Source: a virus (lineage: Duplodnaviria > Caudoviricetes). Taken from it: a DNA stretch of 59,679 nucleotides. The notes beneath the pieces were generated by a model. The model was not told the DNA's origin and ran no database searches. It worked only from the letters and a program-made list of their open reading frames with translations. This document shows, piece after piece, positions 964-34,065 of this stretch. Position 1 is the stretch's first letter. Each line of letters opens with the position of its first letter. The stretch is from positions 1 to 59,679 of the IMG/VR virus record IMGVR_UViG_3300032231_000653, one strand, 5' to 3'. The translations under genes were made by a program, and so were the position numbers.

Positions 964-3963
964 ATGGCAACACGTGATCTACTCGTAAGGATTGTTGTAG
1001 ATTTAAACAAATTTACACAAGGTATAGGCAACGCGAGTAAACATGTAAAAGACTTTACAAATCAAACAGCAGATTTTTCAAAAAAGCACACTGCTGATAT
1101 AAAAAAGGCGGGTATTGCTTTAACTGCGTTCGCAGGTACCGCTGCGTTTGCTCTGAAAAAGGCGTCTGGCGTTGCTTTAGATTATGAAGAACAGATGGCA
1201 CGTGTAGAAACCATGCTGCGCGATAATGTCAACACTGCAACTAACGAAGTCGTTGATACTATGGCTAACTTTGACGTAAAAGTTAAAAGTATGGCCACGG
1301 AATTTGGACAGTCAACTAAAACATTATCTGATGGCTTATATAATGCATTATCCGCAGGAAATGACGCAACGGAAAGTATAGAGTTACTTGAAGAAGCTGC
1401 GAAAATAGCCGCGGGCCAATTCACAGAAACAGGTACGGTTATCGAAGTACTGTTAACTACTATGGAAGCATACGGAGACGAAATAAGCGATGTCACACAC
1501 GTTTCAGATATGCTTTCAAATACTGTATTTCTAGCACGAACAGAAATGGGCGCGTTAGCGCAACAGGCAGGCAATTTCATACCCATAGGCAAACAACTTG
1601 GCATACCACTAAATGATTTACTCGCACTATTCGCACAGCTTACATTATCTTTAGGGAGTACTGAGCGGGCTACCACCACGCTCAGTGGGATAATGAACAC
1701 TTTTACAAAACCGCAGGAACAAGCTAAAAAGGCATTTGCAGAGCTTACCCAAGAAGCACTAGGATACAGCGCGGAACTATCAATAAACACAGTTAAACAA
1801 CTGGGTTTTGGAAATATTTTAAAATTAATAAGTGGTGCTAGTGTAGAGCACGCATCAGCACTATTTGGATCACAAGAAGCGTTAAAAGGTCTCGACGTTT
1901 TAATGTCAAAGAGTAACGAGACTATGCAAAAAAGCGCGCAAATATTGAATGACAGGGGTACAGCGCAAAATCACTTTAATAATGCACAAGATAAAACGTT
2001 TTTTAAAATACAACAAACAGAACAGAAAATAAAAGTCGCATTAATTGATACTTTTAGTAATTCTCTCCCAATAATTGAAGCCTTTACAATGCTACTGGGA
2101 GATATGGCGGCATGGTTTAGTAAGTTGTCTCCTGCAACAAAACGCTTCATCGCATCCATTTCCGTTGGTAGTGTGGCTGTAGCAGCAGTATCCGCAGGAT
2201 TATTAAGCATAACACTATTGTTACCTAAACTTGTAGCAGGCTTTGCTGTAGTTAAAGGTGCTGTAATCGCTTTGAATGCGCACGTGTTTCTGCTCGCGGG
2301 TAGTGTTAAAGCACTGTTGGCTGTGGGGCTTTTAAAGTGGTTGGGCGCGGTAGCCGCTGCTTTCGCCGTTGGTTGGGGTATTGGAAAATTACTTACGCAG
2401 TTCGATGCGTTAAACCGCGCCATACAAACTACTATCGAATACTGGACAAAACTAATAGGCTTAGACTTCTCAAAACCTGCTGCGGATGTCGCAGGTTTGT
2501 CAAAAAGGCTTGATGAAATTAACAAAAAGTACGGTATTCAAGCTAAAAGTGCCGAAGAGGCTCTAAAAATTATTAAAGAGCGTAATGCTGCAACTAGAGA
2601 AGCACTCGAATCTGACAAACCCATAGACAGCACTAGCCTTATAGAACGTGTTAAGAAATTAAAGGCGACAGAACAGAAAGTATTGTCTAAAGAGGAAAAG
2701 AAAAACCAGGACGAAATATTAAAGTTAAAAAGACAATTAGCTATAGAGAGCTTGGAAGTAGCGGGTAAGGAGAAAGATGCGAAATTACTCGTGCTTTTAC
2801 GGGAATTTGAAGAGCGAAAAAAAGTGCTAGGTGATGACTTGGAGCTTGAGCGTTGGTATCAAAACAGCCGTAATGCCATAGAGAAAGAGTATGCTGACAA
2901 AAAGGCAGAAAAAAGGCAAGAGCAATTAGTAGAATTGGAACAAGAGTATGTGCGCGGTTTAAATTTAGAAAAAAGCCTTATTGAAAATATAGGCTTTTCT
3001 TGGGCAGGATATTACGATTGGAAAAAACAGCGCATTGAAGATGACTTCTTAGAAACACTAGATAACACTGACAATAAAGAAGCTGCAGAGCGTGTATACC
3101 AAAACAATCTTAAAAAACTGGATATTAAGAAGCAAGAACACGCCGAAAGTGTCAAAGAAAAAGAGCTTGATGCACTCATAAAACATTTAGAAAGCCTTAC
3201 AGAAGCCAATGAAGATTACTATAAAACCATAAGCGAAATAGCACAACGCACAGGGCAAACAAGAACAGAAGTTATAAATATGCACGTTGAAAATGTGAAA
3301 CAAAACTTCAACAGTGCGCTCGAAGGCATGCACGCCGCATCGGAAGAATTTGTTAACGAAGAAGTTAATCTGTATCAAATGAGTCATGAAATTATCCAAG
3401 ATGGTTATACAAGCATGATTGATGGTATGTCAGATTTACTATCGGAATTTATTGAAGGAGCCATTAGGGGCAATGTGAGCATGCGTGATAGTTTTAATGC
3501 AATTACGCAAGATATGGCACGATCTTTTATACAGGCCGTCTCTCGGATGATTGTAAAGGCGCTTATATTAAAAGCCATCCAAGGCATGACGGGTACAGGT
3601 GCCATTCCGCTAGGCGCAGAAAAAGGAGGTCTAATACCCGCATTAGGCTATCAAAGTGGTGGTTCAGTATTGGGTGCAAGCGGCCCTGGGGATAATGTGC
3701 GTGCTAATTTAAAAGGTGGGGAGTTTGTAGTACGTAAAGAAGCTGTAAATTCCAGTACGCTTAAGCAGCTTGCACGTATTAACAAAACAGGACGTACACA
3801 AACCAACACACCTCAGGTACAAACTGGAGATATTGTCAATTTTATTGACCCTTCGTTGTTTCAGAATTATATTGCAAAAAATCCAGACGCTATAACAAAT
3901 GTTGTTTCAGCGGATGCAGCAGGTGGCGGACGCGTACGTTCAAGTTTAAGAAAAACGTTATAA
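964..3963 (+). CDS. Tail tape measure protein (TP901 family)
   Basis: 999 aa, Ala-rich helical N-core, central hydrophobic segment, coiled coil, and C-terminal GG.V.G..GPGDNV.A.L..GEFV motif. Confidence 0.9.
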   Translation: MATRDLLVRIVVDLNKFTQGIGNASKHVKDFTNQTADFSKKHTADIKKAGIALTAFAGTAAFALKKASGVALDYEEQMARVETMLRDNVNTATNEVVDTMANFDVKVKSMATEFGQSTKTLSDGLYNALSAGNDATESIELLEEAAKIAAGQFTETGTVIEVLLTTMEAYGDEISDVTHVSDMLSNTVFLARTEMGALAQQAGNFIPIGKQLGIPLNDLLALFAQLTLSLGSTERATTTLSGIMNTFTKPQEQAKKAFAELTQEALGYSAELSINTVKQLGFGNILKLISGASVEHASALFGSQEALKGLDVLMSKSNETMQKSAQILNDRGTAQNHFNNAQDKTFFKIQQTEQKIKVALIDTFSNSLPIIEAFTMLLGDMAAWFSKLSPATKRFIASISVGSVAVAAVSAGLLSITLLLPKLVAGFAVVKGAVIALNAHVFLLAGSVKALLAVGLLKWLGAVAAAFAVGWGIGKLLTQFDALNRAIQTTIEYWTKLIGLDFSKPAADVAGLSKRLDEINKKYGIQAKSAEEALKIIKERNAATREALESDKPIDSTSLIERVKKLKATEQKVLSKEEKKNQDEILKLKRQLAIESLEVAGKEKDAKLLVLLREFEERKKVLGDDLELERWYQNSRNAIEKEYADKKAEKRQEQLVELEQEYVRGLNLEKSLIENIGFSWAGYYDWKKQRIEDDFLETLDNTDNKEAAERVYQNNLKKLDIKKQEHAESVKEKELDALIKHLESLTEANEDYYKTISEIAQRTGQTRTEVINMHVENVKQNFNSALEGMHAASEEFVNEEVNLYQMSHEIIQDGYTSMIDGMSDLLSEFIEGAIRGNVSMRDSFNAITQDMARSFIQAVSRMIVKALILKAIQGMTGTGAIPLGAEKGGLIPALGYQSGGSVLGASGPGDNVRANLKGGEFVVRKEAVNSSTLKQLARINKTGRTQTNTPQVQTGDIVNFIDPSLFQNYIAKNPDAITNVVSADAAGGGRVRSSLRKTL

Positions 3964-19182: not shown

Positions 19183-21684
19183 TTGGGTAAATTAGTTTCA
19201 TGTAAATGTGGTACGCAGTTCGATCCTACATGGGCAGCATATGATGAGTGCCCCACGTGTCGTGCGCACCATGTCGCCCGTTTTTTATCTGAGCGTCAAC
19301 GCTGTGGTAAATGTGATCTATCACGTAATTGTCTCACGAATTGCATGCGCGGCGTTGGTGCCACGCATGCAGATGTCATGATTATAGGGGAAGCGCCAGG
19401 ATACCGTGAAGACAGAAAGGGTGCGCCGTTTCTTGGTGATGCAGGTGCTTGTCTGAATGATTTAATTAAATCTGCTGGTTGGAAGAGGAGTGAAATTTTT
19501 ATCACAAACGTGTGTAAGTGCCGCCCACCTAATAACGCTACGCCTAAAGTATCACATATTAAAGCGTGCATGCCATATTTAGAAAATGAAATAAACAGCG
19601 TTAATCCCAAGCTTATCGTGGCGTTGGGTAATGTTGCCATGCGCGCTGTACTAAACACGACAGGTATAATGCGTGCACATGGAGATGTTCAATGGTCAGA
19701 TACGTACAATACTTGGGTGTTACCTTGTTTGCATCCTGCGTATCTTTTAAGAACACCTACATACACGGATATAACTAAGCAAGAGTTAAAATTAGGTGCA
19801 TACGTAGCAGTACATAATAGACTACCTCCCAAAGACGAGGTTAAATATGAGTACACAGATGGTTTGTCAGATGCTATAAAAATGCTTGAGCTTGTGGGCA
19901 AGAGTGAAAAAATATCTTTTGATATTGAGGCTTATGGATTAAATCCGTGGAAATGTAAGGGTATTTGCAGTTTTGCATTCACTATCAGCGAGCACACAGG
20001 ATTTGGGATAGATATAAGAAAATGGGATACGAGCACTTTGCTAAAGTTTAAACCATTTTTGGCGGATATTTTAAGTAAGAAGCACTTAAAAATAATACAC
20101 AATTTTGAGTATGAATATAAAATGTTGCGCAGGTTCTTTGGGATAATTATTGCGCCTAAAGTTTTTGATACGGTTGTAGCACATCATTTGTGTTATGAAG
20201 AGTATCCACATGATTTGGAAACATTGGCTACACTGCACTGTAATATGCCAAATCATAAACAGGAATTTGTGACATTAACAAATAATTACGCGGATATGGA
20301 CATTCCGACTACTGAGGAGTTACTAGGTTATAACTGCGCCGACACTGACGCAACGTACAGGCTATACAATGTGTTAGTTCCTTGGATGCGTAAAGAAGGT
20401 GTAGTCAAACTATTTGATGAGATTACTATGCCTTTGTGCCACGTTTTGGCAGAAGTAACGTACACGGGCGTGCACATAGACACTGTAAAATTGCACCAGG
20501 TTGCTGCAAAGTACGCAGACATTATCACCAATGGAAAACGTGCAATTGCGTTACTTACGGATGATTTAAAGTTTAATCCACTATCACCTAAGCAAGTGAG
20601 TGGATATTTTTACGAAAATAAAGGCTACAACTCTCTAAAGTGTTCAAAAACAACCCAGGAACCTTCGGCGGATAAAGAGTCGTTAGAACACATTGTAAGC
20701 ACTTATAATGATCCTGTGGCACGGTTAATTTTGGAGGTTAGAAAGTACGTTAAGCTAAAAAGCACTTATTTAGACGGAGGAAAAACAAGCGGCGGGCTTT
20801 TGCAGTATGTAGACGGAGAATCCAGAATACATACACAATATCTGGTGCACGGAACGACAACGGGGAGGCCATCGAGTAAGGCGCCAAATTTACAGAATCA
20901 AAGCAGATCAGACGATATTCGTGGCTTGTTTACAGCAACAGCAGGGACTTACTTGCTGGATGCTGATTACTCTCAATTAGAGTTACGTATAGCAGCGTAT
21001 TACTCAAAAGACCCACATCTACTAAGCGCGTACATACTTGGCTTAGATTTGCATTCTATAGTTGCTACTGATTGTTTAGGCGCAGACCCGCAGAATGTTG
21101 ATAAAGATTTAAGAACAGCAGCAAAAGCGATAAATTTTGGAATTATTTATGGCATGGGGCCGAAAGGATTAGCCGCGGACATTACAACTAAACGTGGGCG
21201 CATATGCACTGAAGATGAAGCGGCTCAGTATATACACGCGTATTTTGAGCGTTATGAAAAATTGCGTGATTTTGTGGAAGCAATAAAAAATACCGTGTTG
21301 GCAGGCCAGGCGCTTGTAACAATATACGGGAATAAGCGCAGATTTACTAATATCAAGCACATGTTAAAGGAGCCTCATAAGTATAGCATGGCATTAAGTG
21401 AAGCCGTACGCACGGGGCAGAACTTTCCTATACAGGGGACAGCAGGGCATACATTATCTGACGCGACCGTGCGTGTAGACGCCGCTATAAAGGCGAGTAA
21501 AATGCCAATGTCCATCGTATTAACAGTACATGACGAATTACTGTTTGAAGTGCGTGAGGACGTACCACACGCGGAAGCTACTCAATTGGTTAGAGAAAAC
21601 ATGGAGAATCCAGAAATTTTTGGAGGGCTGCTACCATTCCCTGTGGACATCGAAATAACACGCGCATGGAAACAGAAAGATTAG
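19183..21684 (+). CDS. Family A DNA polymerase with N-terminal zinc ribbon and family-4 uracil-DNA glycosylase-like domain
   Basis: IGEAPG..ED..G.PF.G.AG, KCRPP.N and HPAY (UDG); FDIE (exonuclease); DYSQLELR, R..AKAINFG..YG and VHDEL (PolA). Confidence 0.92.
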   Translation: MGKLVSCKCGTQFDPTWAAYDECPTCRAHHVARFLSERQRCGKCDLSRNCLTNCMRGVGATHADVMIIGEAPGYREDRKGAPFLGDAGACLNDLIKSAGWKRSEIFITNVCKCRPPNNATPKVSHIKACMPYLENEINSVNPKLIVALGNVAMRAVLNTTGIMRAHGDVQWSDTYNTWVLPCLHPAYLLRTPTYTDITKQELKLGAYVAVHNRLPPKDEVKYEYTDGLSDAIKMLELVGKSEKISFDIEAYGLNPWKCKGICSFAFTISEHTGFGIDIRKWDTSTLLKFKPFLADILSKKHLKIIHNFEYEYKMLRRFFGIIIAPKVFDTVVAHHLCYEEYPHDLETLATLHCNMPNHKQEFVTLTNNYADMDIPTTEELLGYNCADTDATYRLYNVLVPWMRKEGVVKLFDEITMPLCHVLAEVTYTGVHIDTVKLHQVAAKYADIITNGKRAIALLTDDLKFNPLSPKQVSGYFYENKGYNSLKCSKTTQEPSADKESLEHIVSTYNDPVARLILEVRKYVKLKSTYLDGGKTSGGLLQYVDGESRIHTQYLVHGTTTGRPSSKAPNLQNQSRSDDIRGLFTATAGTYLLDADYSQLELRIAAYYSKDPHLLSAYILGLDLHSIVATDCLGADPQNVDKDLRTAAKAINFGIIYGMGPKGLAADITTKRGRICTEDEAAQYIHAYFERYEKLRDFVEAIKNTVLAGQALVTIYGNKRRFTNIKHMLKEPHKYSMALSEAVRTGQNFPIQGTAGHTLSDATVRVDAAIKASKMPMSIVLTVHDELLFEVREDVPHAEATQLVRENMENPEIFGGLLPFPVDIEITRAWKQKD

Positions 21685-25003: not shown

Positions 25004-25276
25004 ATGTCATATAAGGTGGAATTAACATACTTTAGATCAGGAGGTAAGTGCTATACAGGCGGTGAATACATTTCAGAAAAAAAGGAAATGTACGAAATTT
25101 TTGCAGAAGTGCGCACGCTTAATGCGAATAGGCAACTCCCAGGATTGACAGAAGTGCATGATCCTGCATATTTTATAACAGTTAATGTACCGGATCATGT
25201 AAATAACCATTCAGCATTGATATTCAATAAAGAAGAAGTGGTTATGCGTTGGATGAAGGAGGCGCATTTTGTTTAG
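25004..25276 (+). CDS. Hypothetical phage protein
   Basis: AAGGAG RBS; 90 aa. Confidence 0.7.
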   Translation: MSYKVELTYFRSGGKCYTGGEYISEKKEMYEIFAEVRTLNANRQLPGLTEVHDPAYFITVNVPDHVNNHSALIFNKEEVVMRWMKEAHFV

Positions 25277-26354
25277 ATTTGTGGCATTTTCAGATTTGCA
25301 TGCACACAACTGGAAAGATTTTTGTCATCTTGACGGCACAACTGGGCTGAATTCGAGATTGCTGGATGCTGTACATTGTATAGTTCAGATACGCGAATAT
25401 TGCATATCACATGATATAAGCACTGTTGTTTTTTTAGGGGATATGTTTGAAACAAAAGGTGTCGTGCCATTTTCAGTTTTTAATCCCATCTACGCTGAAT
25501 TGACGTTATTTAAAACAGTGGGGATACATTTAATTATGCTTGTAGGTAATCATGATTTGACTACCAGAGCGTGTGAGATACATGCTATGCAAGCATTCAA
25601 AACATTCGCCACTGTTGTAGACAAACCCACATTAATTAAAAACGCCGAAAAGTCTGCTTTTTTGGCAGCACCATTCACTTATGATATAAACATTTTTAAT
25701 CAGTATTTAGAGATACTACAGGCTAAAGGAGAGGCAGCGGTTGGCTACGATCTAGTTCGGTTACTTCATTGTGATTGTGCTAAAGCAAAAGTTGAAAGCG
25801 GTTTTATTGTGTATCACGATATAAAACCGGATATTTTTAAGTTTGCTGATTATTGCATTACGCTGATGGGGCATTACCATATGCATCAGTGGGTGCACAG
25901 TAAGGCTTGCTACGTGGGGTCTACACAATCTTGCCATATAGGCGAGGCAAATGTTGAGAAGGGGTTTGTGGATGTTACTGTCTCTAAAGGTGCATGTGAG
26001 ATAAAATTTGTCAAATCGGACATACCAATGATAAGGAAGGTTACATACACTCCTGGTTTAGATATAAGCCAACTTAGCGGGGATTACGTGAGTGTGATCA
26101 TCCCACAGAAGCATGAGAAAGAATTTGTTGTAGCTAAGCGCACTTTACAGTGTGCGCACACTGTCAATGTACAAGTATGTGCGACTGAGTTTAAAAAAGA
26201 TACGCGGATTGATATATCGCCGGATATGCGTATGACAGAAGCTTTGGAAAAGGTTATTGATTCATCCCTATTGGCTGAAAAAATTGGTAACTTAGACAAA
26301 CGGAAACTGAAAGAGTTAGGAAAGACGTTCTTAACAGAAGCTGTAGAGGCATAA
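25269..26354 (+). CDS. sbcD: SbcD/Mre11-like metallophosphoesterase nuclease
   Basis: SDLH, GDMF, GNHD, GHYH and YVGS motifs. Confidence 0.9.
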   Translation: MFRFVAFSDLHAHNWKDFCHLDGTTGLNSRLLDAVHCIVQIREYCISHDISTVVFLGDMFETKGVVPFSVFNPIYAELTLFKTVGIHLIMLVGNHDLTTRACEIHAMQAFKTFATVVDKPTLIKNAEKSAFLAAPFTYDINIFNQYLEILQAKGEAAVGYDLVRLLHCDCAKAKVESGFIVYHDIKPDIFKFADYCITLMGHYHMHQWVHSKACYVGSTQSCHIGEANVEKGFVDVTVSKGACEIKFVKSDIPMIRKVTYTPGLDISQLSGDYVSVIIPQKHEKEFVVAKRTLQCAHTVNVQVCATEFKKDTRIDISPDMRMTEALEKVIDSSLLAEKIGNLDKRKLKELGKTFLTEAVEA

Positions 26355-26356
26355 TT

Positions 26357-28288
26357 ATGGAATTTAAAAAATTAATTATAGATAATTTTCTTAGTTATGC
26401 GCATGCAGAAGTGGCCTTGGACACTTCAGGTTTAGTGGGTATTGTGGGTGTTGTGTCAGGAGGTTGCAGTGATTCTAACGGAGCAGGTAAGTCTGCATTA
26501 TTTGATGCTTTAGTGTGGTGTCTTTTTGGAACACCTGTCAGAAGTAAGACGCTAGATGAAGGCAATGTCGCGGCGGGTGCAATCATACGGAACGGACAGA
26601 AAAGCTGTAGTGTCACAACTTTGTTAAGTGTGGGTACACAAAAGATTGAAATTTGTAGGGAGCGTAAGGTACGCGGTGGAAGTATCCTTTCTCTTCTTAT
26701 AAATGGATCGTCTGCTTGTGAACGATCATCAGTTAGTGAAACGCAGAAAAAAATAAATCAAATATTAGGGATAGATTATAAAACGTTTTTACGCACTGTC
26801 ATGTTTGGGCAAGGGATTACTAAGAAGTTCCTTTACGCAACAAACACGGAGAAAAAGGCGTATTTTGAGCGCATTTTAGGGTTAGAAAAGCTGCAAGATG
26901 CGCGTAGGCTTGTAAAGGTGCGTGCGGATGTGTTGCGTGAAGAAATTGCAAAAATGGATAGAGAACTTTCCAGCGTAAATTTGAGTATTGAGCATACTAA
27001 TATGGATATCAATACCCTAAAAAATAGGTTGGATGAAAAGAGTATATTAGCTGATCAAGAGTTTAGTGGGATAGAGCAAGAAATTAAAAGTAAGAAACTT
27101 CAGATTGACGCGCATATTGTCGATGATGCTTGCGCTATAAGTGCGGATATCCAGTGTGTTGAAGATGCTTTACAGGGAGTCAGGAACAACAAGGTTTCTG
27201 TGTGTGTTGCGTTAGATGCGGAAATTGAGAAGTATCAGCAGGCACAGCGTGCAATAGCAAATGCTGTGTTCTCATTAGAAAAAGATTCAAATAAATATGC
27301 AAGCCAATTAGATCGCATTGTCCAAAATGATCTAATCGGTGTGGAATGTGCTGAATGTGGCAGATTAATAGATCGTGATACACAAGCTTCACACATCACA
27401 AAATTGCGTGATACGTTAGTCATGTGCCAACGCTCTATAGATAGTGAGCGTGTACGCCTTAAAGTTATTAACACAGCCTTAGACACCGCTAAGGCTAACA
27501 AGCAAGCTTTTAAAACTTCGCATGCTTCAGAGTGTACTGATTTGACAGATCGCTTGACATATTTGAAAGGATTAATATTAAAAGTTGACACGCAGATAGC
27601 TGTAAAAGCAGGGTTAGATCGGGATTTGAGCAATTTGTGTTTAAAGTTGGAAAGCGCCAAGAAGCGTGCTTTAGATAACACTTTCATGGACATGCTGAAA
27701 GATAAGGAACGTCAGATTTTAGAACTGTCTAAGCAGGTTTCTAAACTGCATTTTAAAATTGATATGAGTAATGATGATCTGAGATATTATTCTGTATTAT
27801 ATGATGTGTTTAAAGATATGCAGGCATATATGCTCGATTGTATTGTGCCATTTTTGAATAACCGCGCTCAGCATTACGCGCAGCAATTAACCAATGGGTT
27901 ATTCACCGTCACTTTTGACACACAAAAATTGGTGGCAGGCGTCTTGAAGGACAACTTTGATGTGTGTGCAACTATTAGGGATGGCGTGAAAGATTACTCG
28001 TTGATGTCCGGTGGCGAAAGGCAACGTGTAAACGTTATTGTAGCATTGTGTTTACAGGATTTGTTGGCGTCTAGGACTAACGATAATGATGTTAATTTGA
28101 GAATTTTTGATGAGCCTTTTGAGGGGATGGACGCAGGCGGTAAAGATATGCTTTTGCAATTGATGCTGGTAGAAGCACGAGATAAGACGGTGTTTTTTGT
28201 GACGCACTCTTCAGATTACCAAGGTTATTTTAAGGAGTTGGTAAGTGTGCGTAAAGAATGTGAGGTATCTCACATAACTGTGGAGTGA
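26357..28288 (+). CDS. sbcC: SbcC/Rad50-like ATPase
   Basis: NGAGKS, CxxC hook within coiled coil, MSGGE, FDEPF and VTH motifs. Confidence 0.92.
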   Translation: MEFKKLIIDNFLSYAHAEVALDTSGLVGIVGVVSGGCSDSNGAGKSALFDALVWCLFGTPVRSKTLDEGNVAAGAIIRNGQKSCSVTTLLSVGTQKIEICRERKVRGGSILSLLINGSSACERSSVSETQKKINQILGIDYKTFLRTVMFGQGITKKFLYATNTEKKAYFERILGLEKLQDARRLVKVRADVLREEIAKMDRELSSVNLSIEHTNMDINTLKNRLDEKSILADQEFSGIEQEIKSKKLQIDAHIVDDACAISADIQCVEDALQGVRNNKVSVCVALDAEIEKYQQAQRAIANAVFSLEKDSNKYASQLDRIVQNDLIGVECAECGRLIDRDTQASHITKLRDTLVMCQRSIDSERVRLKVINTALDTAKANKQAFKTSHASECTDLTDRLTYLKGLILKVDTQIAVKAGLDRDLSNLCLKLESAKKRALDNTFMDMLKDKERQILELSKQVSKLHFKIDMSNDDLRYYSVLYDVFKDMQAYMLDCIVPFLNNRAQHYAQQLTNGLFTVTFDTQKLVAGVLKDNFDVCATIRDGVKDYSLMSGGERQRVNVIVALCLQDLLASRTNDNDVNLRIFDEPFEGMDAGGKDMLLQLMLVEARDKTVFFVTHSSDYQGYFKELVSVRKECEVSHITVE

Positions 28289-28653
28289 ATAGGCATATGG
28301 CTAATGAATGTAAAGATACAGTTGTGTGTTTGCGACTAAATTTGGATGGTAATGACATCATAGAATGTTTAAAAAGCACGAATGGGTTACCACAAAATTT
28401 AGTGGATGAGTGTAAAAATGTAAGAAACGACAAGATCAATAAGACGTTTTTGGGGGTGACAATACAGCTTTTTAAAGTTGTTAAAAAGAAAGAAGAATGT
28501 GTGCACTTGTTTTTTGTGGCTGCCGACTTCGCGTCAGAGAAGCAATTTTTTAATCACATTTTTAATGTATTACGCAGTATTGGGGACTTATTATCTTTTT
28601 ATAAGAAAGATTCTAATATACTTCTTCCTAATGATTTTTTAAAAACATGTTAG
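28285..28653 (+). CDS. Hypothetical protein
   Basis: Overlapping ORF within the operon. Confidence 0.55.
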   Translation: MNRHMANECKDTVVCLRLNLDGNDIIECLKSTNGLPQNLVDECKNVRNDKINKTFLGVTIQLFKVVKKKEECVHLFFVAADFASEKQFFNHIFNVLRSIGDLLSFYKKDSNILLPNDFLKTC

Positions 28654-28663
28654 GAAACGCCAT

Positions 28664-29203
28664 ATGAACATATATATAGGTATTGACCCGGGTAAGACAG
28701 GCGCAGTAGCATTGCTCACGGACGATCCGGACAGGCTGGATGTTTGGCAGTACCCAGGAGATATTAAAAGTGCATGCACACTTTTACAAGATGGCATAAT
28801 TGGATTATCACCGAATTTAGAGGAAGCTGATAGAAATGTTTTTGCATGTCTTGAAAAAGTACATGCTATGCCTATGCAAGGGGTGTCATCTTCTTTTAAT
28901 TTTGGTGTTAGCTATGGGATGTGGCAAGGTGTTCTGGCTGTTATGGGTATCCCGTATATATTTGTGACACCACACGCATGGCAGAAGGTTACGTTTGATT
29001 CTCAATGTGTAATTTTTAAAGATGCTAAGCTTAGTGGGAGTAGTAAGATTAAGCGTAAACGAGACACAAAAGCGATGAGCCTGAGTGTGGCGCGCAGGTT
29101 GTTTCCAGATGTTGATTTACATAGAAAAGCGGATGATGGAAAGGCCGACGCATTAAACTTGGCGAGATATGCTAAAATGATGGTGAAAAAGGGTATTTTA
29201 TGA
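28664..29203 (+). CDS. RuvC-like Holliday junction resolvase
   Basis: IGIDPG..GA, EKV.AMP.QG..S.F.FG, P..W and DG.ADA motifs. Confidence 0.88.
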   Translation: MNIYIGIDPGKTGAVALLTDDPDRLDVWQYPGDIKSACTLLQDGIIGLSPNLEEADRNVFACLEKVHAMPMQGVSSSFNFGVSYGMWQGVLAVMGIPYIFVTPHAWQKVTFDSQCVIFKDAKLSGSSKIKRKRDTKAMSLSVARRLFPDVDLHRKADDGKADALNLARYAKMMVKKGIL

Positions 29204-29805
29204 AAACTTTAAAAGTGAATTGTGCATATGATGATCTCATAGATATTTGTCTGCTAATTGAAAATGTACAAAATCCGAAGATAATTAATGCATCAGAGCT
29301 TGCACAGTTAAAGAAGGAAATTGTAGAGTTAGGGTTTTTTAGGCCACAAATTATAAACGATGATAACGTGGTGCTCGGGGGCAATCAGAGATTGAAAGCC
29401 CTTAGAGAATTAGCGCGTGAGGGCTATGATTGTTCTAAGGTGCCTGTTTCTTACTACAGAGATAAAGAAAAGGAAGATTACGTTGTTGTAGCTGATAATA
29501 CCACAAATGGGCAGTGGAACCAAGACGTCAATCTAGGTGCCACACTGGAAGGATTTTTGAAAGATGTACAATTAAAAGTGCCCAATTTCGACATAGGTTT
29601 AACAGGGTTGTCACCAAGCACACTTTCAGAACTGAAGATAGATTTAGATGTGACAAAAGATAATGCACCTGCGTACAGTGAGGATGACGATGTGCTTCCA
29701 GAAGTTGAAACAAAGGATGCAGTTACGCAAAGTGGTGATTTATGGGAATTGGGACGGTCGGTATACTGTCCGAAATGTGGAAAGAGGCATTTTGTAGAAT
29801 TATGA
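29200..29805 (+). CDS. ParB-like N-terminal module of a split ParB-methyltransferase
   Basis: NPK, GF..P.I, GGNQRLKAL and ADN motifs; ends GDLWELG-RSVYCPKCGKRH. Confidence 0.8.
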   Translation: MKTLKVNCAYDDLIDICLLIENVQNPKIINASELAQLKKEIVELGFFRPQIINDDNVVLGGNQRLKALRELAREGYDCSKVPVSYYRDKEKEDYVVVADNTTNGQWNQDVNLGATLEGFLKDVQLKVPNFDIGLTGLSPSTLSELKIDLDVTKDNAPAYSEDDDVLPEVETKDAVTQSGDLWELGRSVYCPKCGKRHFVEL

Positions 29806-30674
29806 AAATTACATGCGATTGTCAACACACGTTTGAATATTCGGAAAAAGACGTATTTTCACATAAAGTTCTTTGCGGAGATTCCACAAGTACTGCTGAT
29901 GTTGAGAAACTCATGAGTGGAGAAAAGGCGGACATGGTTTTTACGTCTCCGCCATATAGCGACCGCAGAAAATATAAGATAGGTTCTTTTGATTGGGATG
30001 AACTCATGAACGGTGTCTTCACATGTACCTTTTCGGTTGTGAAGGAAACGACACACATTCTTGTAAACCTTGGGCTTGTGCATAAAAACCGGCAGGTGGA
30101 CATGTATTGGAACGCATGGCTAAAATACATGGAAGATGCTGGCTATCCTCTGTTCGGGTGGTACATTTGGGACAAAACATACGGACTTCCCGGTGAGTGG
30201 TCAGGGCGCCTTGCACCTGCATTCGAGTTTATTTTCCACTTTAATAGGAAGACCGATTCCTGCAATAAATGGATTGAGACAAAGGAAACGAGCAGGAATC
30301 GGAAGCATTCAAAATCCCCGGGAATGCGTGACGCCGATGGGACTGTAGGAAAATGGTACTCTCATGATAAAACAGGACAAGATTTTAAGGTTCCTGACTC
30401 AGTCATCAGGATCACTTCTGCAAGCACCGCAGGATGGCCGGAATTTGGATGTAAAACATGGACGCAGGAAGGCGATATTGTATATGAGCCATTCGCAGGA
30501 AGCGGGACGACTATAATTGCTTGCGACAAAACGAAACGGCAGTGTCGTGCAATGGAAATAGCGGAATCGTATATTGATATCGCTGTTGCCAGATACGTTA
30601 AATTTGCCGGAAACGTAGGTATACGGCTTAACGGTAAGAGATATGTATGGGGTAAAAATGAAAATAAATTGTGA
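29802..30674 (+). CDS. Beta-class N4C/N6A DNA methyltransferase (SPPY)
   Basis: CGDST, FTSPPY and EPFAGSGTT motifs; start at the ATGA overlap, N-terminus MKITCDCQHTF. Confidence 0.85.
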   Translation: MKITCDCQHTFEYSEKDVFSHKVLCGDSTSTADVEKLMSGEKADMVFTSPPYSDRRKYKIGSFDWDELMNGVFTCTFSVVKETTHILVNLGLVHKNRQVDMYWNAWLKYMEDAGYPLFGWYIWDKTYGLPGEWSGRLAPAFEFIFHFNRKTDSCNKWIETKETSRNRKHSKSPGMRDADGTVGKWYSHDKTGQDFKVPDSVIRITSASTAGWPEFGCKTWTQEGDIVYEPFAGSGTTIIACDKTKRQCRAMEIAESYIDIAVARYVKFAGNVGIRLNGKRYVWGKNENKL

Positions 30675-31446
30675 ATGTGGACATGAGTTTGAATATGAAG
30701 AAGGTGATATTCATTCGCATAATTTATTGTGTGGTGACGCCACAGTTCTTGATGATGTTGTAAAACTTATGGATGGAGGTAAGGCCGATATGGTTTTTAC
30801 TGATCCTCCTTACAATGTTGATTATGAAGGCTATACAGAAGATAACCTTAAAATTCAGAATGACGCTATGTCAACAGAAGAATTTTGTAAGTTTCTTAAT
30901 GATGTTTTCTCAAACTATCGAATTGTAGCAAAGGACACCACAAGCCTATATATCTGTCATCCTAGTAAATACCAGCGAGAATTTCAGAACGCCATGGAAG
31001 GCGCAGGTTTTGAAATACGCTGCCAGATTGTGTGGGCAAAAAACACCTTTGCATGGGGGTTTGGTCGCTATAAGTTTCAGCATGAGCCGATATTTTATGC
31101 GCATGTTGCTGGGGAATCCGACTCTTGGTACGGTGATAAGAGTCAGGCAACACTGTGGGAGGAGAATAAGCCAGCAGCGAGCAAGTTACATCCTACCATG
31201 AAACCCACAGGACTTGTTATCCGAGCTATAACTAATAGTTCTAAGAAAAATGACATCGTACTAGATTTATTTGGCGGTTCTGGCACGACTATCATAGCAT
31301 GCGAAGAAATGCACAGAGAAGCACGTGTTATGGAACTGGATGAGCATTACTGTGATGTTATAATCCAGCGCTATGTTAATTTATGTGGTAACAAGCATAT
31401 AAGGCGTAATAAGGAGGTTTACGTATGGCCACGTGGGTTGTACTAG
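30658..31446 (+). CDS. Beta-class N6A DNA methyltransferase (DPPY)
   Basis: CGDAT, FTDPPY, HPTMKP and DLFGGSGTT motifs; N-terminus MKINCECGHEF. Confidence 0.9.
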   Translation: MKINCECGHEFEYEEGDIHSHNLLCGDATVLDDVVKLMDGGKADMVFTDPPYNVDYEGYTEDNLKIQNDAMSTEEFCKFLNDVFSNYRIVAKDTTSLYICHPSKYQREFQNAMEGAGFEIRCQIVWAKNTFAWGFGRYKFQHEPIFYAHVAGESDSWYGDKSQATLWEENKPAASKLHPTMKPTGLVIRAITNSSKKNDIVLDLFGGSGTTIIACEEMHREARVMELDEHYCDVIIQRYVNLCGNKHIRRNKEVYVWPRGLY

Positions 31447-31642
31447 CGATATTTATACATACAGGCGGTATATAGTCGGTGCAATTATTGCAACTTGGAG
31501 TTTATGCATGTTAGACAAGAAATTACGCTTCAAAAACTGGTTTATTTTGTTATGTGGGAGATGTTTACTAAATATAACTCTATTAAAAAGGCACAAGAGA
31601 ATACTCGTGTACCTCTTTAGGTTTGGATAAATAGGAGCCTTT

Positions 31643-31843
31643 ATGCTAATAACATGTGAATGTGGGCATACTTTTAGTGTTGAAGATGCATTAGGTGTGG
31701 ATGCTAACATGCAGGATTCTACGCAGCACATATGTAAGGATAATAAGGATAACCTTGATGTGTGTCACAAAAATGAGAAGTGGTTTTACGTAGATTTTTA
31801 TGTACTTTGTGTGATAATGATAGTTATGCAGTTGCATACGTAA
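31643..31843 (+). CDS. Small protein sharing the MTase N-terminal CxCxH knuckle
   Basis: AGGAG RBS; MLITCECGHTF. Confidence 0.55.
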   Translation: MLITCECGHTFSVEDALGVDANMQDSTQHICKDNKDNLDVCHKNEKWFYVDFYVLCVIMIVMQLHT

Positions 31844-31999
31844 CACATGTCTTTGACACATCGAATATACTTAAAACGCAAGCATGTTAAGTGCAATTTG
31901 GTACTAAGGTGTACACTTGTGTCTTGGTTATGGCTGTACCCATACGCGTATACCGGCTACATGTGTTTGATTTTAAAATAGAACTAAAACGCAGGTGCA

Positions 32000-32015
32000 T
32001 GGCATAAAACGTGCA
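32000..32015 (+). promoter_or_regulatory. Sigma54-type promoter
   Basis: TGGCATAAAACGTGCA. Confidence 0.65.
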
Positions 32016-32059
32016 TTTAGTTTGTGTAATGATAAACCTTGATATAAGGAGCAAATATC

Positions 32060-32443
32060 ATGAATATGAGGCAGTTAGCCGCAAAGTACCTTGAGAATGT
32101 GGCGGAATGTGGTAAGTGTCCTATTAGTTTAGAAATGTATGAAGATGCCGTTAATCTTGCTGTGACGTATTTTGGAGCAGAGCGTGATATAAATGAGATA
32201 CGCATGATGCATGTTGATGCATATTTCAATTCAGATACTATTAGCAAGGCGGATGGTGCAGCACTAACATGTAGGCATATAAAACGCAATAAACGTGTAT
32301 TGCGTCATGCATTTCAGTTTGCTTTAGAATGCAATTTAATAAGTCAGTTACCTATACCAAAATTCGAAATGCATGACACGTGTAAAAAAACTGGTGCATT
32401 ATGTGCATGTGTTACCGCAGATGATAGCAAGGCTAATGTATGA
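32060..32443 (+). CDS. Stand-alone tyrosine-recombinase core-binding (SAM-like) domain protein
   Basis: YL......GK...S...Y......YFG ... LR..F.FA....I...P pattern; no catalytic domain. Confidence 0.65.
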   Translation: MNMRQLAAKYLENVAECGKCPISLEMYEDAVNLAVTYFGAERDINEIRMMHVDAYFNSDTISKADGAALTCRHIKRNKRVLRHAFQFALECNLISQLPIPKFEMHDTCKKTGALCACVTADDSKANV

Positions 32444-32516
32444 ACACTCGTTCATGCAGATATGTTTAAAGCTGTTTTTATTTATTAGCTTTTCGTATAG
32501 TTACGAGGTGTAGCTA

Positions 32517-32711
32517 ATGGAAAATTCCAAAAACAAGTTAAGTATCCCTTGGGTTACATGCACAAAATGCTCTACAGCTATACAGCTTGATTTTTTAAAA
32601 GATGGATTATGTGTATTTTGTGGATGCGATTTGAGCACCCACATTGGTGAAGTAGGTGTGGAGAAGGTACTTATTACTAATGATATCTTTTCACGCACAA
32701 TAGGTTTTTAG
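32517..32711 (+). CDS. Small zinc-ribbon protein
   Basis: CxxC...CxxC. Confidence 0.6.
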   Translation: MENSKNKLSIPWVTCTKCSTAIQLDFLKDGLCVFCGCDLSTHIGEVGVEKVLITNDIFSRTIGF

Positions 32712-32714
32712 GAG

Positions 32715-33098
32715 GTGTATATGGTAGATGATGAATTTAACACTGTATTAAGTGATACATTAAAAAAAGTTACGGACATGCTTGCTGTAAAAGGCGCCGA
32801 GTATGCTCATGGAGACCGTTTGTCAAATTTCAAGCAAGCAGCAAAGCTACTCAATACATCTAACAAAGCTGCTTTGGGTGGTATGTTGAGTAAGCATATA
32901 GTTAGTGTATTTAACATGTTGCAGAGTACTGAACAATTTACCTTAGATAAATGGGATGAAAAAATTATTGATGTGATTGCATACATGGTTCTGTTGCGTG
33001 CTGTAATTTCTGAAGATGTGCATAGCATCCGTGGTGCAGACGTCTCGGCAAATGACAGCGCTTTTAATGGCGTAGATATAATTAGTGACTTAATATGA
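32715..33098 (+). CDS. Helical nucleotide-modification-associated / MazG-like protein
   Basis: K..EYA..D...NFK, KH and D...Y..LL pattern. Confidence 0.55.
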   Translation: MYMVDDEFNTVLSDTLKKVTDMLAVKGAEYAHGDRLSNFKQAAKLLNTSNKAALGGMLSKHIVSVFNMLQSTEQFTLDKWDEKIIDVIAYMVLLRAVISEDVHSIRGADVSANDSAFNGVDIISDLI

Positions 33099-33219: not shown

Positions 33220-34065
33220 ATGAACAGTAGGAAAGTATGTTATACAGAAACGTACAAACGGTTTATTAATGATGTTATTAAAGTTGATATACCTACGCGC
33301 AGGGAAGAGCTAAATTTAGCCAAGCGTGCATGTACAGGAGATATTGTTGCTATAAAGAAGTTGGCACATGTCAATCAACGCTTGGTTATTAATATAGCTG
33401 TTAGATATGCGCGCATGAACGACTCCGAGTTGGTGGATATCATACAGGATGGTAACGTTGGTCTTATGAAAGCTATCTCTAAATTTGACCCTGATAAGGG
33501 TTACAGATTTAGTACGTATGCAACGTGGTGGATAATGCAAGCTATAAAGCGTGGCTTAGCGAATACTCAACGAATGATAAGATTACCTGTCCCGTTGCAT
33601 GAGCAGGGCACTAAACTCCTTAAAATAGCACGAAAATTCGAAAATTTAACTGGCAAATTTCCTACGCATAAAAAATTGGCCGAGGAAGCATGTATGGACG
33701 TAGCAGTGGTATCTGATGTGATGAATATTTTACCTAAGCAAGTTATCTCTTTGGATGAAGAGATATCGGAGGGCTTGTTTTTTTACGATTTATTGCCCAA
33801 TGCCACTACTGTGTCTGCTGAGGATGTTACGCAGCAAAATGGTATTGATGAGCGCGTTGTTGCATTTGTTGAGAAAGCGCTTTCCCAAAATGAAGCTTAT
33901 GTAATTTTAGGTATATATGGTATTGGGCGCAAGAGACCCGCAACGTTAAAGCAATTAGGTATTGAACTGGGTTTACATAAATCTCGTATAGGACAGTTAT
34001 CAAAAAGTGGCAAACAAAAATTAAGTTTACGGAAACAATTATTGAAGGAGTACATAAATGGATGA
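33220..34065 (+). CDS. RNA polymerase sigma70-family factor (RpoD/RpoS-like regions 2-4)
   Basis: N.RLV..IA..Y, D.IQ.G..GL.KA..KFDP.KG.RFSTYATWWI.Q and a region-4 HTH. Confidence 0.93.
   Translation: MNSRKVCYTETYKRFINDVIKVDIPTRREELNLAKRACTGDIVAIKKLAHVNQRLVINIAVRYARMNDSELVDIIQDGNVGLMKAISKFDPDKGYRFSTYATWWIMQAIKRGLANTQRMIRLPVPLHEQGTKLLKIARKFENLTGKFPTHKKLAEEACMDVAVVSDVMNILPKQVISLDEEISEGLFFYDLLPNATTVSAEDVTQQNGIDERVVAFVEKALSQNEAYVILGIYGIGRKRPATLKQLGIELGLHKSRIGQLSKSGKQKLSLRKQLLKEYING

Follow-up and report, generated by a model that had tools for sequence, protein, structure and literature searches.

One-piece fusions of a ParB domain (PF02195) to an N6/N4 methyltransferase (PF01555; MTase in what follows) are enriched in phages, and roles for them in anti-defence have been suggested (PMC12704722); the word "split" does not occur in that account, its supplements aside. 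In the 59,679-base IMG/VR virus record analysed here (the window; about 55% of a genome by the CheckV estimate) this kind of enzyme is encoded in pieces: a ParB-like open reading frame (ORF) is followed by two separate MTase ORFs, and the break falls inside a short stretch with the sequence pattern of a zinc ribbon. We consider it probable that this is a naturally split phage ParB-methyltransferase, a "gene in pieces" whose parts rejoin by way of a zinc ribbon completed in trans. Gene splitting by homing endonucleases and the fusion of ParB to methyltransferases are both known already; the variant here is that the break lies inside a zinc ribbon.

Broken genes and shared zinc sites: the described systems

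Two kinds of broken phage gene come close to what is found here. The "fractured genes" of Dassa et al. 2009 (PMC2677866) occur mainly in phage and, as that paper's description of its loci has it, consist of an N-terminal part with an adaptor, a short non-coding control stretch, a free-standing endonuclease gene, and a second adaptor with the C-terminal part, all on one strand; some of the loci are split without an endonuclease. The layout of the present family is the same, with three differences from the loci described there: the adaptors are zinc-ribbon segments of 16 and 20 residues and not intein halves, so that rejoining would be non-covalent; the endonuclease is of the HNH type, theirs being GIY-YIG or Vsr-like; and the host gene, an MTase, is outside their eight listed enzyme types. 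In the window itself one finds the conserved enzyme gene broken on one strand. An endonuclease gene in the break is absent from the window and from its closest relative (locus L004); of the 21 related loci whose upstream context can be read, 17 have one. Split-intein halves are absent from the break, and no intein family appeared in Pfam scans.

The second kind is the gene in pieces generated by free-standing endonucleases, for which the pertinent section of a review (PMC2988022) gives nrdA/mobE of Aeh1, genes 39 and 60 with mobA of T4, and gene 43 of phage 25 as examples. There, as here, a coding region harbours a free-standing endonuclease of the HNH type and its two polypeptide products have to come together again, and how split polypeptides do so is treated in that section as an open structure-function question. 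The present locus differs from those examples in that the break lies in a dedicated mini-domain that would offer an explicit assembly device, in that several lineages have kept the split beyond the endonuclease, and in that the downstream piece is duplicated.

For such a device the models to hand are zinc sites formed between protein molecules, namely the CD4/CD8alpha-Lck zinc clasp and the Rad50 zinc hook (PMC12198760). In the clasp, as that source describes it, the two-Cys tip of a beta-hairpin and a CxC of the partner hold one tetrahedral zinc ion, and the ligand pattern here, CPKC plus CxC, is alike. There is no homology to clasp or hook, however; the knuckles here flank a strand pairing that continues into the enzyme fold, each half has an additional invariant His, and the zinc site is one predicted from sequence. 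Titles and the beginnings of abstracts in the open-access literature (supplements not covered) yielded neither a split ParB-methyltransferase nor a split zinc ribbon at a homing site.

A ParB-methyltransferase broken between two putative zinc knuckles

The ParB-like piece (201 residues; 29200..29805, plus strand, as are the MTase ORFs and the 66-residue ORF described below) is made up of an N-terminal domain (residues ~1-110), an acidic flexible linker (~111-173) and a tail, or "plug" (174-201; 29719..29802), in which the strand AVTQSGDLWELG is followed by the first ribbon hairpin, RSVYCPKCGKRHFVEL. The ORF thus runs through GDLWELG into a CPKCG knuckle and ends ...GDLWELGRSVYCPKCGKRHFVEL, at a TGA stop (29803-29805). 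That the N-terminal domain is ParB-like is suggested by matches to phrog_498 (positions 29-200, 4.7e-28) and to the "ParB-like" phrog_620 (4.8e-19), and by a profile of 14 ParB relatives that finds the N-domains of solved ParB/Spo0J/Noc proteins (12 chains, 2.1e-8 to 7.7e-4); two relatives, P0005 and P0006, have precomputed PF02195 assignments, and the window's own piece has no PF02195 (ParBc) match in Pfam at E<=0.1. It has a G-x-x-R motif, in LGGNQRLKAL, which we take to be Box II-like; across the 14 ParB pieces G61 is invariant and R64 nearly so. Folded alone, the ParB piece has a confident N-domain (predicted local distance difference test, pLDDT, >90), a linker below 50 (some 70 disordered residues) and a terminal hairpin of moderate confidence. 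(P0005 and P0006 are ParB pieces of 182-183 residues on short contigs, and some such pieces end CTCPTCGHRH at the stop.)

MTase 1 (290 residues; 29802..30674) opens MKITCDCQHTFEYSEKDVFSHKVLCGDST, with the head MKITCDCQHTFEY, and has SPPY; MTase 2 (262 residues; 30658..31446) opens MKINCECGHEFEYEEGDIHSHNLLCGDAT, with the head MKINCECGHEFEY, and has DPPY. Both are PF01555 proteins (3.4e-20 and 73.4 bits for the first, 2.5e-30 and 106.5 bits for the second, the Pfam gathering cut-off being 26.7), and among solved chains they come closest to CcrM, DpnA, MboIIA and an N4-cytosine MTase. We assume the usual roles for three of their motifs, (D/S)PPY (catalytic), FxGSG (S-adenosylmethionine, AdoMet) and HPxxxP, and by convention take SPPY to mark an N4-cytosine and DPPY an N6-adenine enzyme. 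The two MTases cover phrog_498 positions 197-437 and 195-431 (the latter at 4e-88); since the ParB piece covers positions 29-200, the three ORFs are consecutive parts of one family. They are also tightly packed: the ParB stop and the MTase 1 start share an ATGA (29802..29805), which puts MTase 1 in the -1 frame and probably couples its translation to that of the ParB piece, and the first 17 nucleotides (nt) of MTase 2 are also the last of MTase 1. (A technical note: further in-frame ATG codons lie upstream, at 29742 for MTase 1 and 30643 for MTase 2, and the starts at 29802 and 30658 have been placed by reference to the heads of relatives.)

An earlier note on this DNA had described the junction as cut where fusions are normally continuous, and the ORFs and Pfam assignments bear this out. 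Domains, their order, the acidic linker, the GDxWxLG and HRLxCGD strands and the catalytic motifs are those of a one-piece ParB-MTase (phrog_498), and many fused enzymes share 60-69% identity with MTase 2. Unlike the one-piece enzymes, the parts are separate ORFs, one ParB piece stands before two MTases, and about 36 residues of Cys/His ribbon occupy a position that in the fused enzymes (67 ORFs, in 64 of 80 loci) takes 1-4 residues. Those residues hold two knuckles, CPKC and CxC(x)H, on two predicted hairpins (ParB strands 187-190/195-198; MTase 2 strands 2-4/10-12).

The one-piece enzyme consists of a ParB/Srx domain, an acidic flexible linker, and a beta-hairpin, GDxWxLG/HRLxCGD, that opens the MTase fold. 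In the present family a zinc ribbon of ~36 residues occupies the turn of that hairpin, and the gene is broken in the loop between the knuckles: the ParB piece holds the first strand and knuckle 1 (CPKCGKRH), and each MTase piece knuckle 2 (CxCxH) and the second strand. In most relatives an HNH homing-endonuclease cassette, apparently with its own promoter and ribosome-binding site, fills the break; in the window and a few others there is no cassette, yet the break persists and the stop codon overlaps the start codon. The mechanism that we propose is this. Once the pieces have been made by coupled translation, the tail of the ParB piece would dock on the MTase head, the two strands would pair, and the knuckles would close around one zinc ion (CxxC plus CxC) in a manner like that of the CD4-Lck zinc clasp, leaving the ParB domain tethered non-covalently to the enzyme.

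How common is the break?

Continuity through GDxWxLGxHRLxCGD is the normal condition. In a survey of 80 viral loci encoding relatives of MTase 2, 67 MTase ORFs in 64 loci are fused to ParB through this uninterrupted junction; an uninterrupted junction behind a truncated or short N-terminus was found in 4 loci (4 ORFs), another type of junction in 4 (4 ORFs), and no ORF was picked in 4. Separate ORFs with CxCxH heads are confined in this survey to L004 (2 ORFs) and separate ORFs with a different head, GKLxLKS, to three loci (L046-48; 6 ORFs); one locus, L028, has a fused ORF with a CxxC...CxxC insertion at the junction. L028 (1-1050) is the sole fused ParB-MTase seen with a Cys ribbon at that place (GDLWLLGAREVCQHCGEDSNGGKCDSCGKEYTPERLHRLLCGD); it is truncated where its contig ends, and the ancestor from before the break may have looked like it.

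Protein collections give the same picture. A motif script could place 62 of the best 120 relatives of MTase 2 in a large protein collection, 58 with variant motifs going unclassified; the standard spacing is seen in 47 fused proteins, and 4 more are fusions whose junction is unclear. The other 11 start with a short N-terminus, and they include CxCGH heads (P0008, which is the window's own, P0009, P0010, P0011 and P0013) and CKCC heads (P0069 and P0116). Among 150 representative relatives of MTase 1, no insertion interrupts the fusion in 82; another 14 were scored as fusions whose gap is longer or unresolved (in some of them only because a later motif was picked), none of them containing Cys; stand-alone Cys-headed forms are P0139, P0200 and P0231. 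(In P0139, P0200, P0231, P0069 and P0116 the starts, CTCQHCGH, CSCGH, CRKCG or CKCCG, stand directly before HRxxCGD.)

The split form itself was then traced in three collections with a DNA-level motif of the head, CxCxH and HxLxCGD spaced by 11 residues. The 36 stretches found are 26 true MTase heads, in 24 distinct loci, and 10 chance matches outside MTases (L094, L098, L099, L100, L103, L109, L113, L118, L119 and L122); L097 duplicates L088, L120 duplicates L092, and L093 is L004's contig. The arrangement is ParB/HNH/MTase in 14 of the 24 loci, HNH/MTase with ParB off the contig in 3, ParB/MTase without HNH in 4, and cut by a contig edge in 3; in none of the 24 are the genes fused. A tail pattern gave five stretches, three of them known, one at a locus edge and one a new split locus without HNH (L125). 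Other searches were less productive: the exact head pattern MK-I-[TN]-C has no match in viral contigs, a locus search with a two-sequence MTase 1 alignment found only L004's contig, a profile-type locus search with the ParB piece alone gave 18 pattern matches of which none was confirmed, and a word-based search with the same piece found 3 relatives only. Megablast against phage records found no close DNA relatives of 28000-33000.

An assembly error, which the earlier note had named among the things that could undo its reading, does not account for the break, because L004, an independent contig, has it too: the arrangement and the ATGA overlap are identical, with MTase 2 79-80% and MTase 1 71% identical to those of the window. 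Contigs of run X1, perhaps the source sample, show no differences from the window across the junction and across a deletion in MTase 1 that is taken up below.

The HNH cassette, and whether the break is only apparent

In the 17 loci with a gene in the break, a free-standing ORF of 167-219 residues lies between ParB and MTase (14 loci) or just upstream of the MTase (3 loci); three of these ORFs were scanned and encode HNH endonucleases (best E-values 4.5e-11 for PF01844 and 4.4e-12 for PF14279). The HNH ORF is preceded by TTGACA-17 nt-TATAAT, with TG one base upstream of TATAAT, and by GGAGG. Such promoter-like cassette starts are seen in L088 (7358-7410), L089 (3360-3410) and L091 (1578-1605), and also in L095, L096, L102, L104, L105, L107, L110 and L111; by this consensus match, which is not proof, the cassette appears to carry its own promoter. 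In L088, L089, L107, L110 and L111 the ParB stop falls within the -35 hexamer; in L091, L095, L096, L102, L104 and L105 it immediately precedes the -10 hexamer. The stop codon lying inside the inserted sequence, the terminal 1-5 residues of these ParB pieces (S, E, FNVR, IDVR) are encoded by the cassette.

A split without HNH is found in four census loci, in the window and in L125. The stop and start at the five HNH-free junctions that could be read overlap in an ATGA (the window, L004 and L115) or a TAATG (L117), or are separated by 4 nt (L116). L115 is without HNH while its nearest ParB relatives (51-57% identical) have it, so the distribution of HNH is patchy, as befits a homing element. 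No trace of a former cassette was recovered from the window: tblastn finds no HNH homologue near the locus there or in L004 (the sole weak match, 2791-3024, is inside the ORF for the tail tape measure), and the cassette promoter has no remnant in the window at up to 3 mismatches.

Might the two ORFs nevertheless give rise to one protein, by -1 frameshifting, by RNA splicing or by protein splicing, or might the break be a sequencing error or a mere pseudogene? MTase 1 does lie in the -1 frame and overlap the ParB stop, and HNH genes are often borne by introns, as the same review notes in its treatment of them (PMC2988022). There is, however, no slippery heptamer before the ParB stop, the frame offset varies among the HNH-free loci, and a frameshift could not cross the 12-48 nt promoter gap and the HNH gene of ~500-660 nt in the relatives. 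No intron was found in the five loci scanned with Rfam (L004, L088, L089, L091 and L092, at E<=0.1), where the one match is weak and unrelated; the ORFs abut or overlap. Inteins are far larger than 16-20 residues, and flanks of 16 and 20 residues are far too short to be one. The break is found, moreover, in 24 distinct loci and in the run X1 contigs. We regard an apparent break as extremely improbable.

What is conserved on either side of the break

The two halves of the ribbon have invariant residues in proteins that otherwise diverge widely. The window's ParB piece is only 21-39% identical to the other 13 (17-80% over all pairs), and C190, C193 and H197 are invariant in all 14; C5, C7 and H9 are invariant in 20 of 20 MTases, whose heads average 62% identity against 33% for the remaining sequence. 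An invariant His thus follows each knuckle (CGK[RK]H and CxCGH; H197 at window 29785-29790, H9 at 30682-30684). Window and L004 are both without HNH. Over the 34 codons of the tail there are, between the two, 13 synonymous and 9 non-synonymous differences, and over the heads 24 and 10 for MTase 1 and 20 and 13 for MTase 2: purifying selection acts on tail and heads even without HNH. Aligning window 29200-29805 with L004 2552-3115 gives 28% identity for the ParB N-domain, 30% for the linker and 74% for the tail; with the MTases at 71% and 79-80%, the tail goes with them rather than with the rest of the ParB piece. This suggests a recombination break in the linker by which the ParB domain itself was swapped.

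These figures bear on one of the alternatives, that the pieces are independent proteins, a ParB protein by itself and orphan MTases, whose Cys/His ends are either self-contained knuckles or the recognition or co-conversion tract of the HNH enzyme. Several observations speak for it. Homing endonucleases target conserved sequence and co-convert its flanks, as that review states in dealing with them (PMC2988022), and in 17 of the 21 readable loci this very site is occupied by the HNH cassette; the invariant His of each half could complete a metal site of its own; and there are stand-alone MTases of the family (P0097, P0029 and P0100) that lack the ParB strand. But the Cys and His residues are kept in HNH-free loci despite many synonymous changes; stop and start overlap or lie at most 4 nt apart at the five HNH-free junctions; in its evolution the tail follows the MTases, apart from the remainder of the ParB piece; the same type of ribbon occurs within one chain in L046-48; and the model of the complex scores 0.87 against 0.03, the head in isolation being poorly ordered (both of which are described next). 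We judge independent proteins to be unlikely.

A predicted complex of the ParB piece with MTase 2

Prediction of the complex, as the earlier note had proposed, was carried out for ParB and MTase 2, with a ParB alignment, an MTase 2 alignment and zinc as input, in three runs and with three controls. The pair scored 0.87 in each of the 3 runs and the best control 0.03; 58 of 80 solved complexes and 2 of 110 mismatched pairs reach that mark. At least 69% of the contacts are common to the runs, and the partner has a pLDDT of at least 69. ParB residues 166-201 contact MTase 2 residues 1-26, 33-39 and 208-258: the tail is predicted to dock on the head. The tightest pairs join MTase 2 20-25 to ParB 178-184, the HNLLC strand lying against the GDLWELG strand, and residues of the two knuckles touch. 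Thus the main contact in the model is strand to strand (GDLWELG/HNLLC), and not the zinc site alone. When MTase 2 is folded alone, head residues 1-20 have pLDDT values of 51-55 and many other blocks exceed 90. Sequence search finds no solved ParB-MTase structure.

Several considerations weigh against a split enzyme rejoined by a zinc ribbon. Binding, the zinc, enzyme activity, the sharing of one ParB piece and a role of ParB in methylation are all things that we infer. The scores were calibrated without a riding ligand and without user alignments. The model yields contacts and not coordinates, so that the geometry of Cys and His about the zinc cannot be read from it. Its confidence may reflect within-chain contacts learned from many fused relatives, so that the pass shows a fit of the pieces as in a one-piece enzyme, and not that they bind. 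A simple four-Cys site does not explain six conserved ligands (H197 and H9 included; their equivalents are absent from the cis ribbons of L046-48). Conservation near the break could come in part from co-conversion or from constraint on the homing target site. A second ParB piece could lie elsewhere in the genome, of which the window is about 55%. Finally, the stand-alone MTases P0097, P0029 and P0100 begin at HRLxCGD and have no ParB strand; the catalytic core is therefore likely to fold, and might also act, in the absence of ParB, and ParB may modulate the enzyme without enabling catalysis. The trans zinc site that the earlier note had assembled from two half-knuckles gains support from modelling and comparison, at a strength short of demonstration.

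One ParB piece, two methyltransferases, and an orphan head

The window holds one tail and three heads, all three of the pattern M-x-I-x-C-x-C-x-H. The third head belongs to a 66-residue ORF (31643..31843) that starts MLITCECGHTF, with an AGGAG 7 nt upstream of its ATG; its first 16-17 residues are a copy of the head (MLITCECGHTFSVED) that retains C5, C7, H9 and F11, and the remainder is unrelated to the MTases. The same head on both MTases and a single tail in 59.7 kb imply that one ParB piece probably serves both enzymes. Tandem loci with unbroken genes (L008, L018 and L020, for example) have a ParB domain for each MTase.

A second lineage speaks to the same point. In L046-48 all three ParB pieces, of the 201-residue class, end ...CxxCG-17 residues-CxCG at the stop, with both knuckles in cis (more fully, ...GDLWLL.AYWEC(E/D)(D/A)CGK.YDYDEGK.MVDAGKEC.CG), and are followed by an SPPY MTase and a DPPY MTase that both start GKLxLKSxHRxLCGD. 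The set of one ParB piece and two MTases, SPPY then DPPY, accordingly occurs with two different break points, which supports a shared ParB piece and also the assignment of the window's half-knuckles to one site. The earlier note's proposal of one ParB for two MTases, which recurs in L004 and in L046-48, is to this extent supported, though not demonstrated.

The two MTases of the window do not look equally fit. MTase 2 has the full set of motifs (DPPY, HPTMKP and FGGSGTT). MTase 1 keeps SPPY and FAGSGTT but has an in-frame deletion of 12 residues, approximately between G211 and W212 (nt 30434/30435); the 71%-identical relative in L004 retains these residues (LLSGHPAAYPVA), which include HPxxxP. 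H178, P179 and P183 are nearly invariant in 20 MTase relatives, and MTase 1 lacks the motif. The suspicion already voiced in the earlier note that MTase 1 is degenerate is well founded: it is probably inactive or crippled, there may as a result be one working module only, and MTase 2 would be the working partner.

The earlier note had gone further and made of this locus a purpose-built plug and socket, with two active modules for a single ParB adaptor to choose from and with the 66-residue ORF as a competitive decoy regulating the choice. The three heads facing one tail, the good AGGAG ribosome-binding site and the retention of C5, C7, H9 and F11 in the orphan head, and the greater mean identity of the heads than of the rest of the MTases (62% against 33%) can be cited in its favour. 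Against it stands, first, the 66-residue ORF itself. It has no catalytic domain (as had been said of it) and no Pfam or PHROG family; among proteins of 36-116 residues it has no homologue, the sole candidate being itself; it is absent from L004, the closest relative; and its likeness to the heads stops after 16 residues, short of the SHxLxCGD strand, where the model has its most confident contacts. Downstream of it there is no remnant of a third MTase, only the 16-residue head giving matches. The motif loss in MTase 1, which leaves perhaps a single working module, goes against a choice between two, and the break coincides with the usual site of the HNH cassette, as in a gene in pieces or a "fractured" gene. 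A purpose-built device of this kind is accordingly improbable, and a decoy role is unsupported; the 66-residue ORF is probably a leftover head, a remnant of recombination. Head-keeping stubs elsewhere look like decay: in L112 (4060-4569) and L123 (reverse strand, ~140-640 after turning) an MTase is cut to a stub of ~166-169 residues, stop to stop, which keeps the MTase head along with the ParB and/or HNH gene. These look like decayed modules similar in kind to the 66-residue ORF.

A more general version of the split-enzyme reading can be entertained, as a conjecture that we hold to be rather doubtful: that the split zinc ribbon is a non-covalent stand-in for a split intein, letting the HNH cassette reside in the opening beta-hairpin of the MTase while the enzyme stays intact, and that the head is a universal socket on which MTase cores are exchanged or stacked by recombination, sharing one ParB through an intermolecular CxxC plus CxC zinc site. 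The HNH cassette and the split zinc ribbon may have spread together. If this were true, the ribbon would amount to a heterodimerisation tag of natural origin, very small and dependent on zinc.

Genomic surroundings

The Holliday-junction resolvase gene (28664-29203; phrog_1770, 1e-29) lies directly upstream of the ParB piece, with which it shares another ATGA overlap. Within 28500-32600 promoter-like sites are not enriched (10, against a shuffle mean of 13.4); terminator-like sites number 6, against a shuffle mean of 2.1, and none separates the four ORFs. Besides tail and terminase genes, the window has a phage RecA (23080-24288; PF00154, 1.2e-113), a sigma-70-like factor with regions 2 and 3 (33220-34065), SbcCD-like genes, and a DNA polymerase of 833 residues with a TTG start (19183-21684) that combines a family-4-like uracil-DNA glycosylase (UDG), a 3'-5' exonuclease and PolA domains.

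The polymerase is headed, at 19195, by a ribbon, LVSCKCGTQF...ECPTC, that the earlier note had brought forward as an intact counterpart of the broken one. The ribbon is there, but its knuckles (CxC...CPxC) are in the reverse order relative to the ParB/MTase junction; it adds little, and proves nothing about pairing in trans. At 25269-28288 an SbcD-like phosphoesterase is followed by a 643-residue SbcC/Rad50-like ATPase with a central VECAECG (CxxC), a candidate zinc hook of the Rad50 type, and this could be a second intermolecular zinc site of the same phage.

A possible way of splitting without introns or inteins

Here the break falls inside a tiny module both halves of which are conserved across very divergent phages, and this points to a concrete assembly device. 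If the zinc pairing is real, the ~36 residues of the ribbon would constitute a natural heterodimerisation pair of use in protein engineering. For the phages, it would explain how one ParB domain can serve several methylases, and selfish endonucleases would have, alongside introns and inteins, a third means of residing in a gene without harm.

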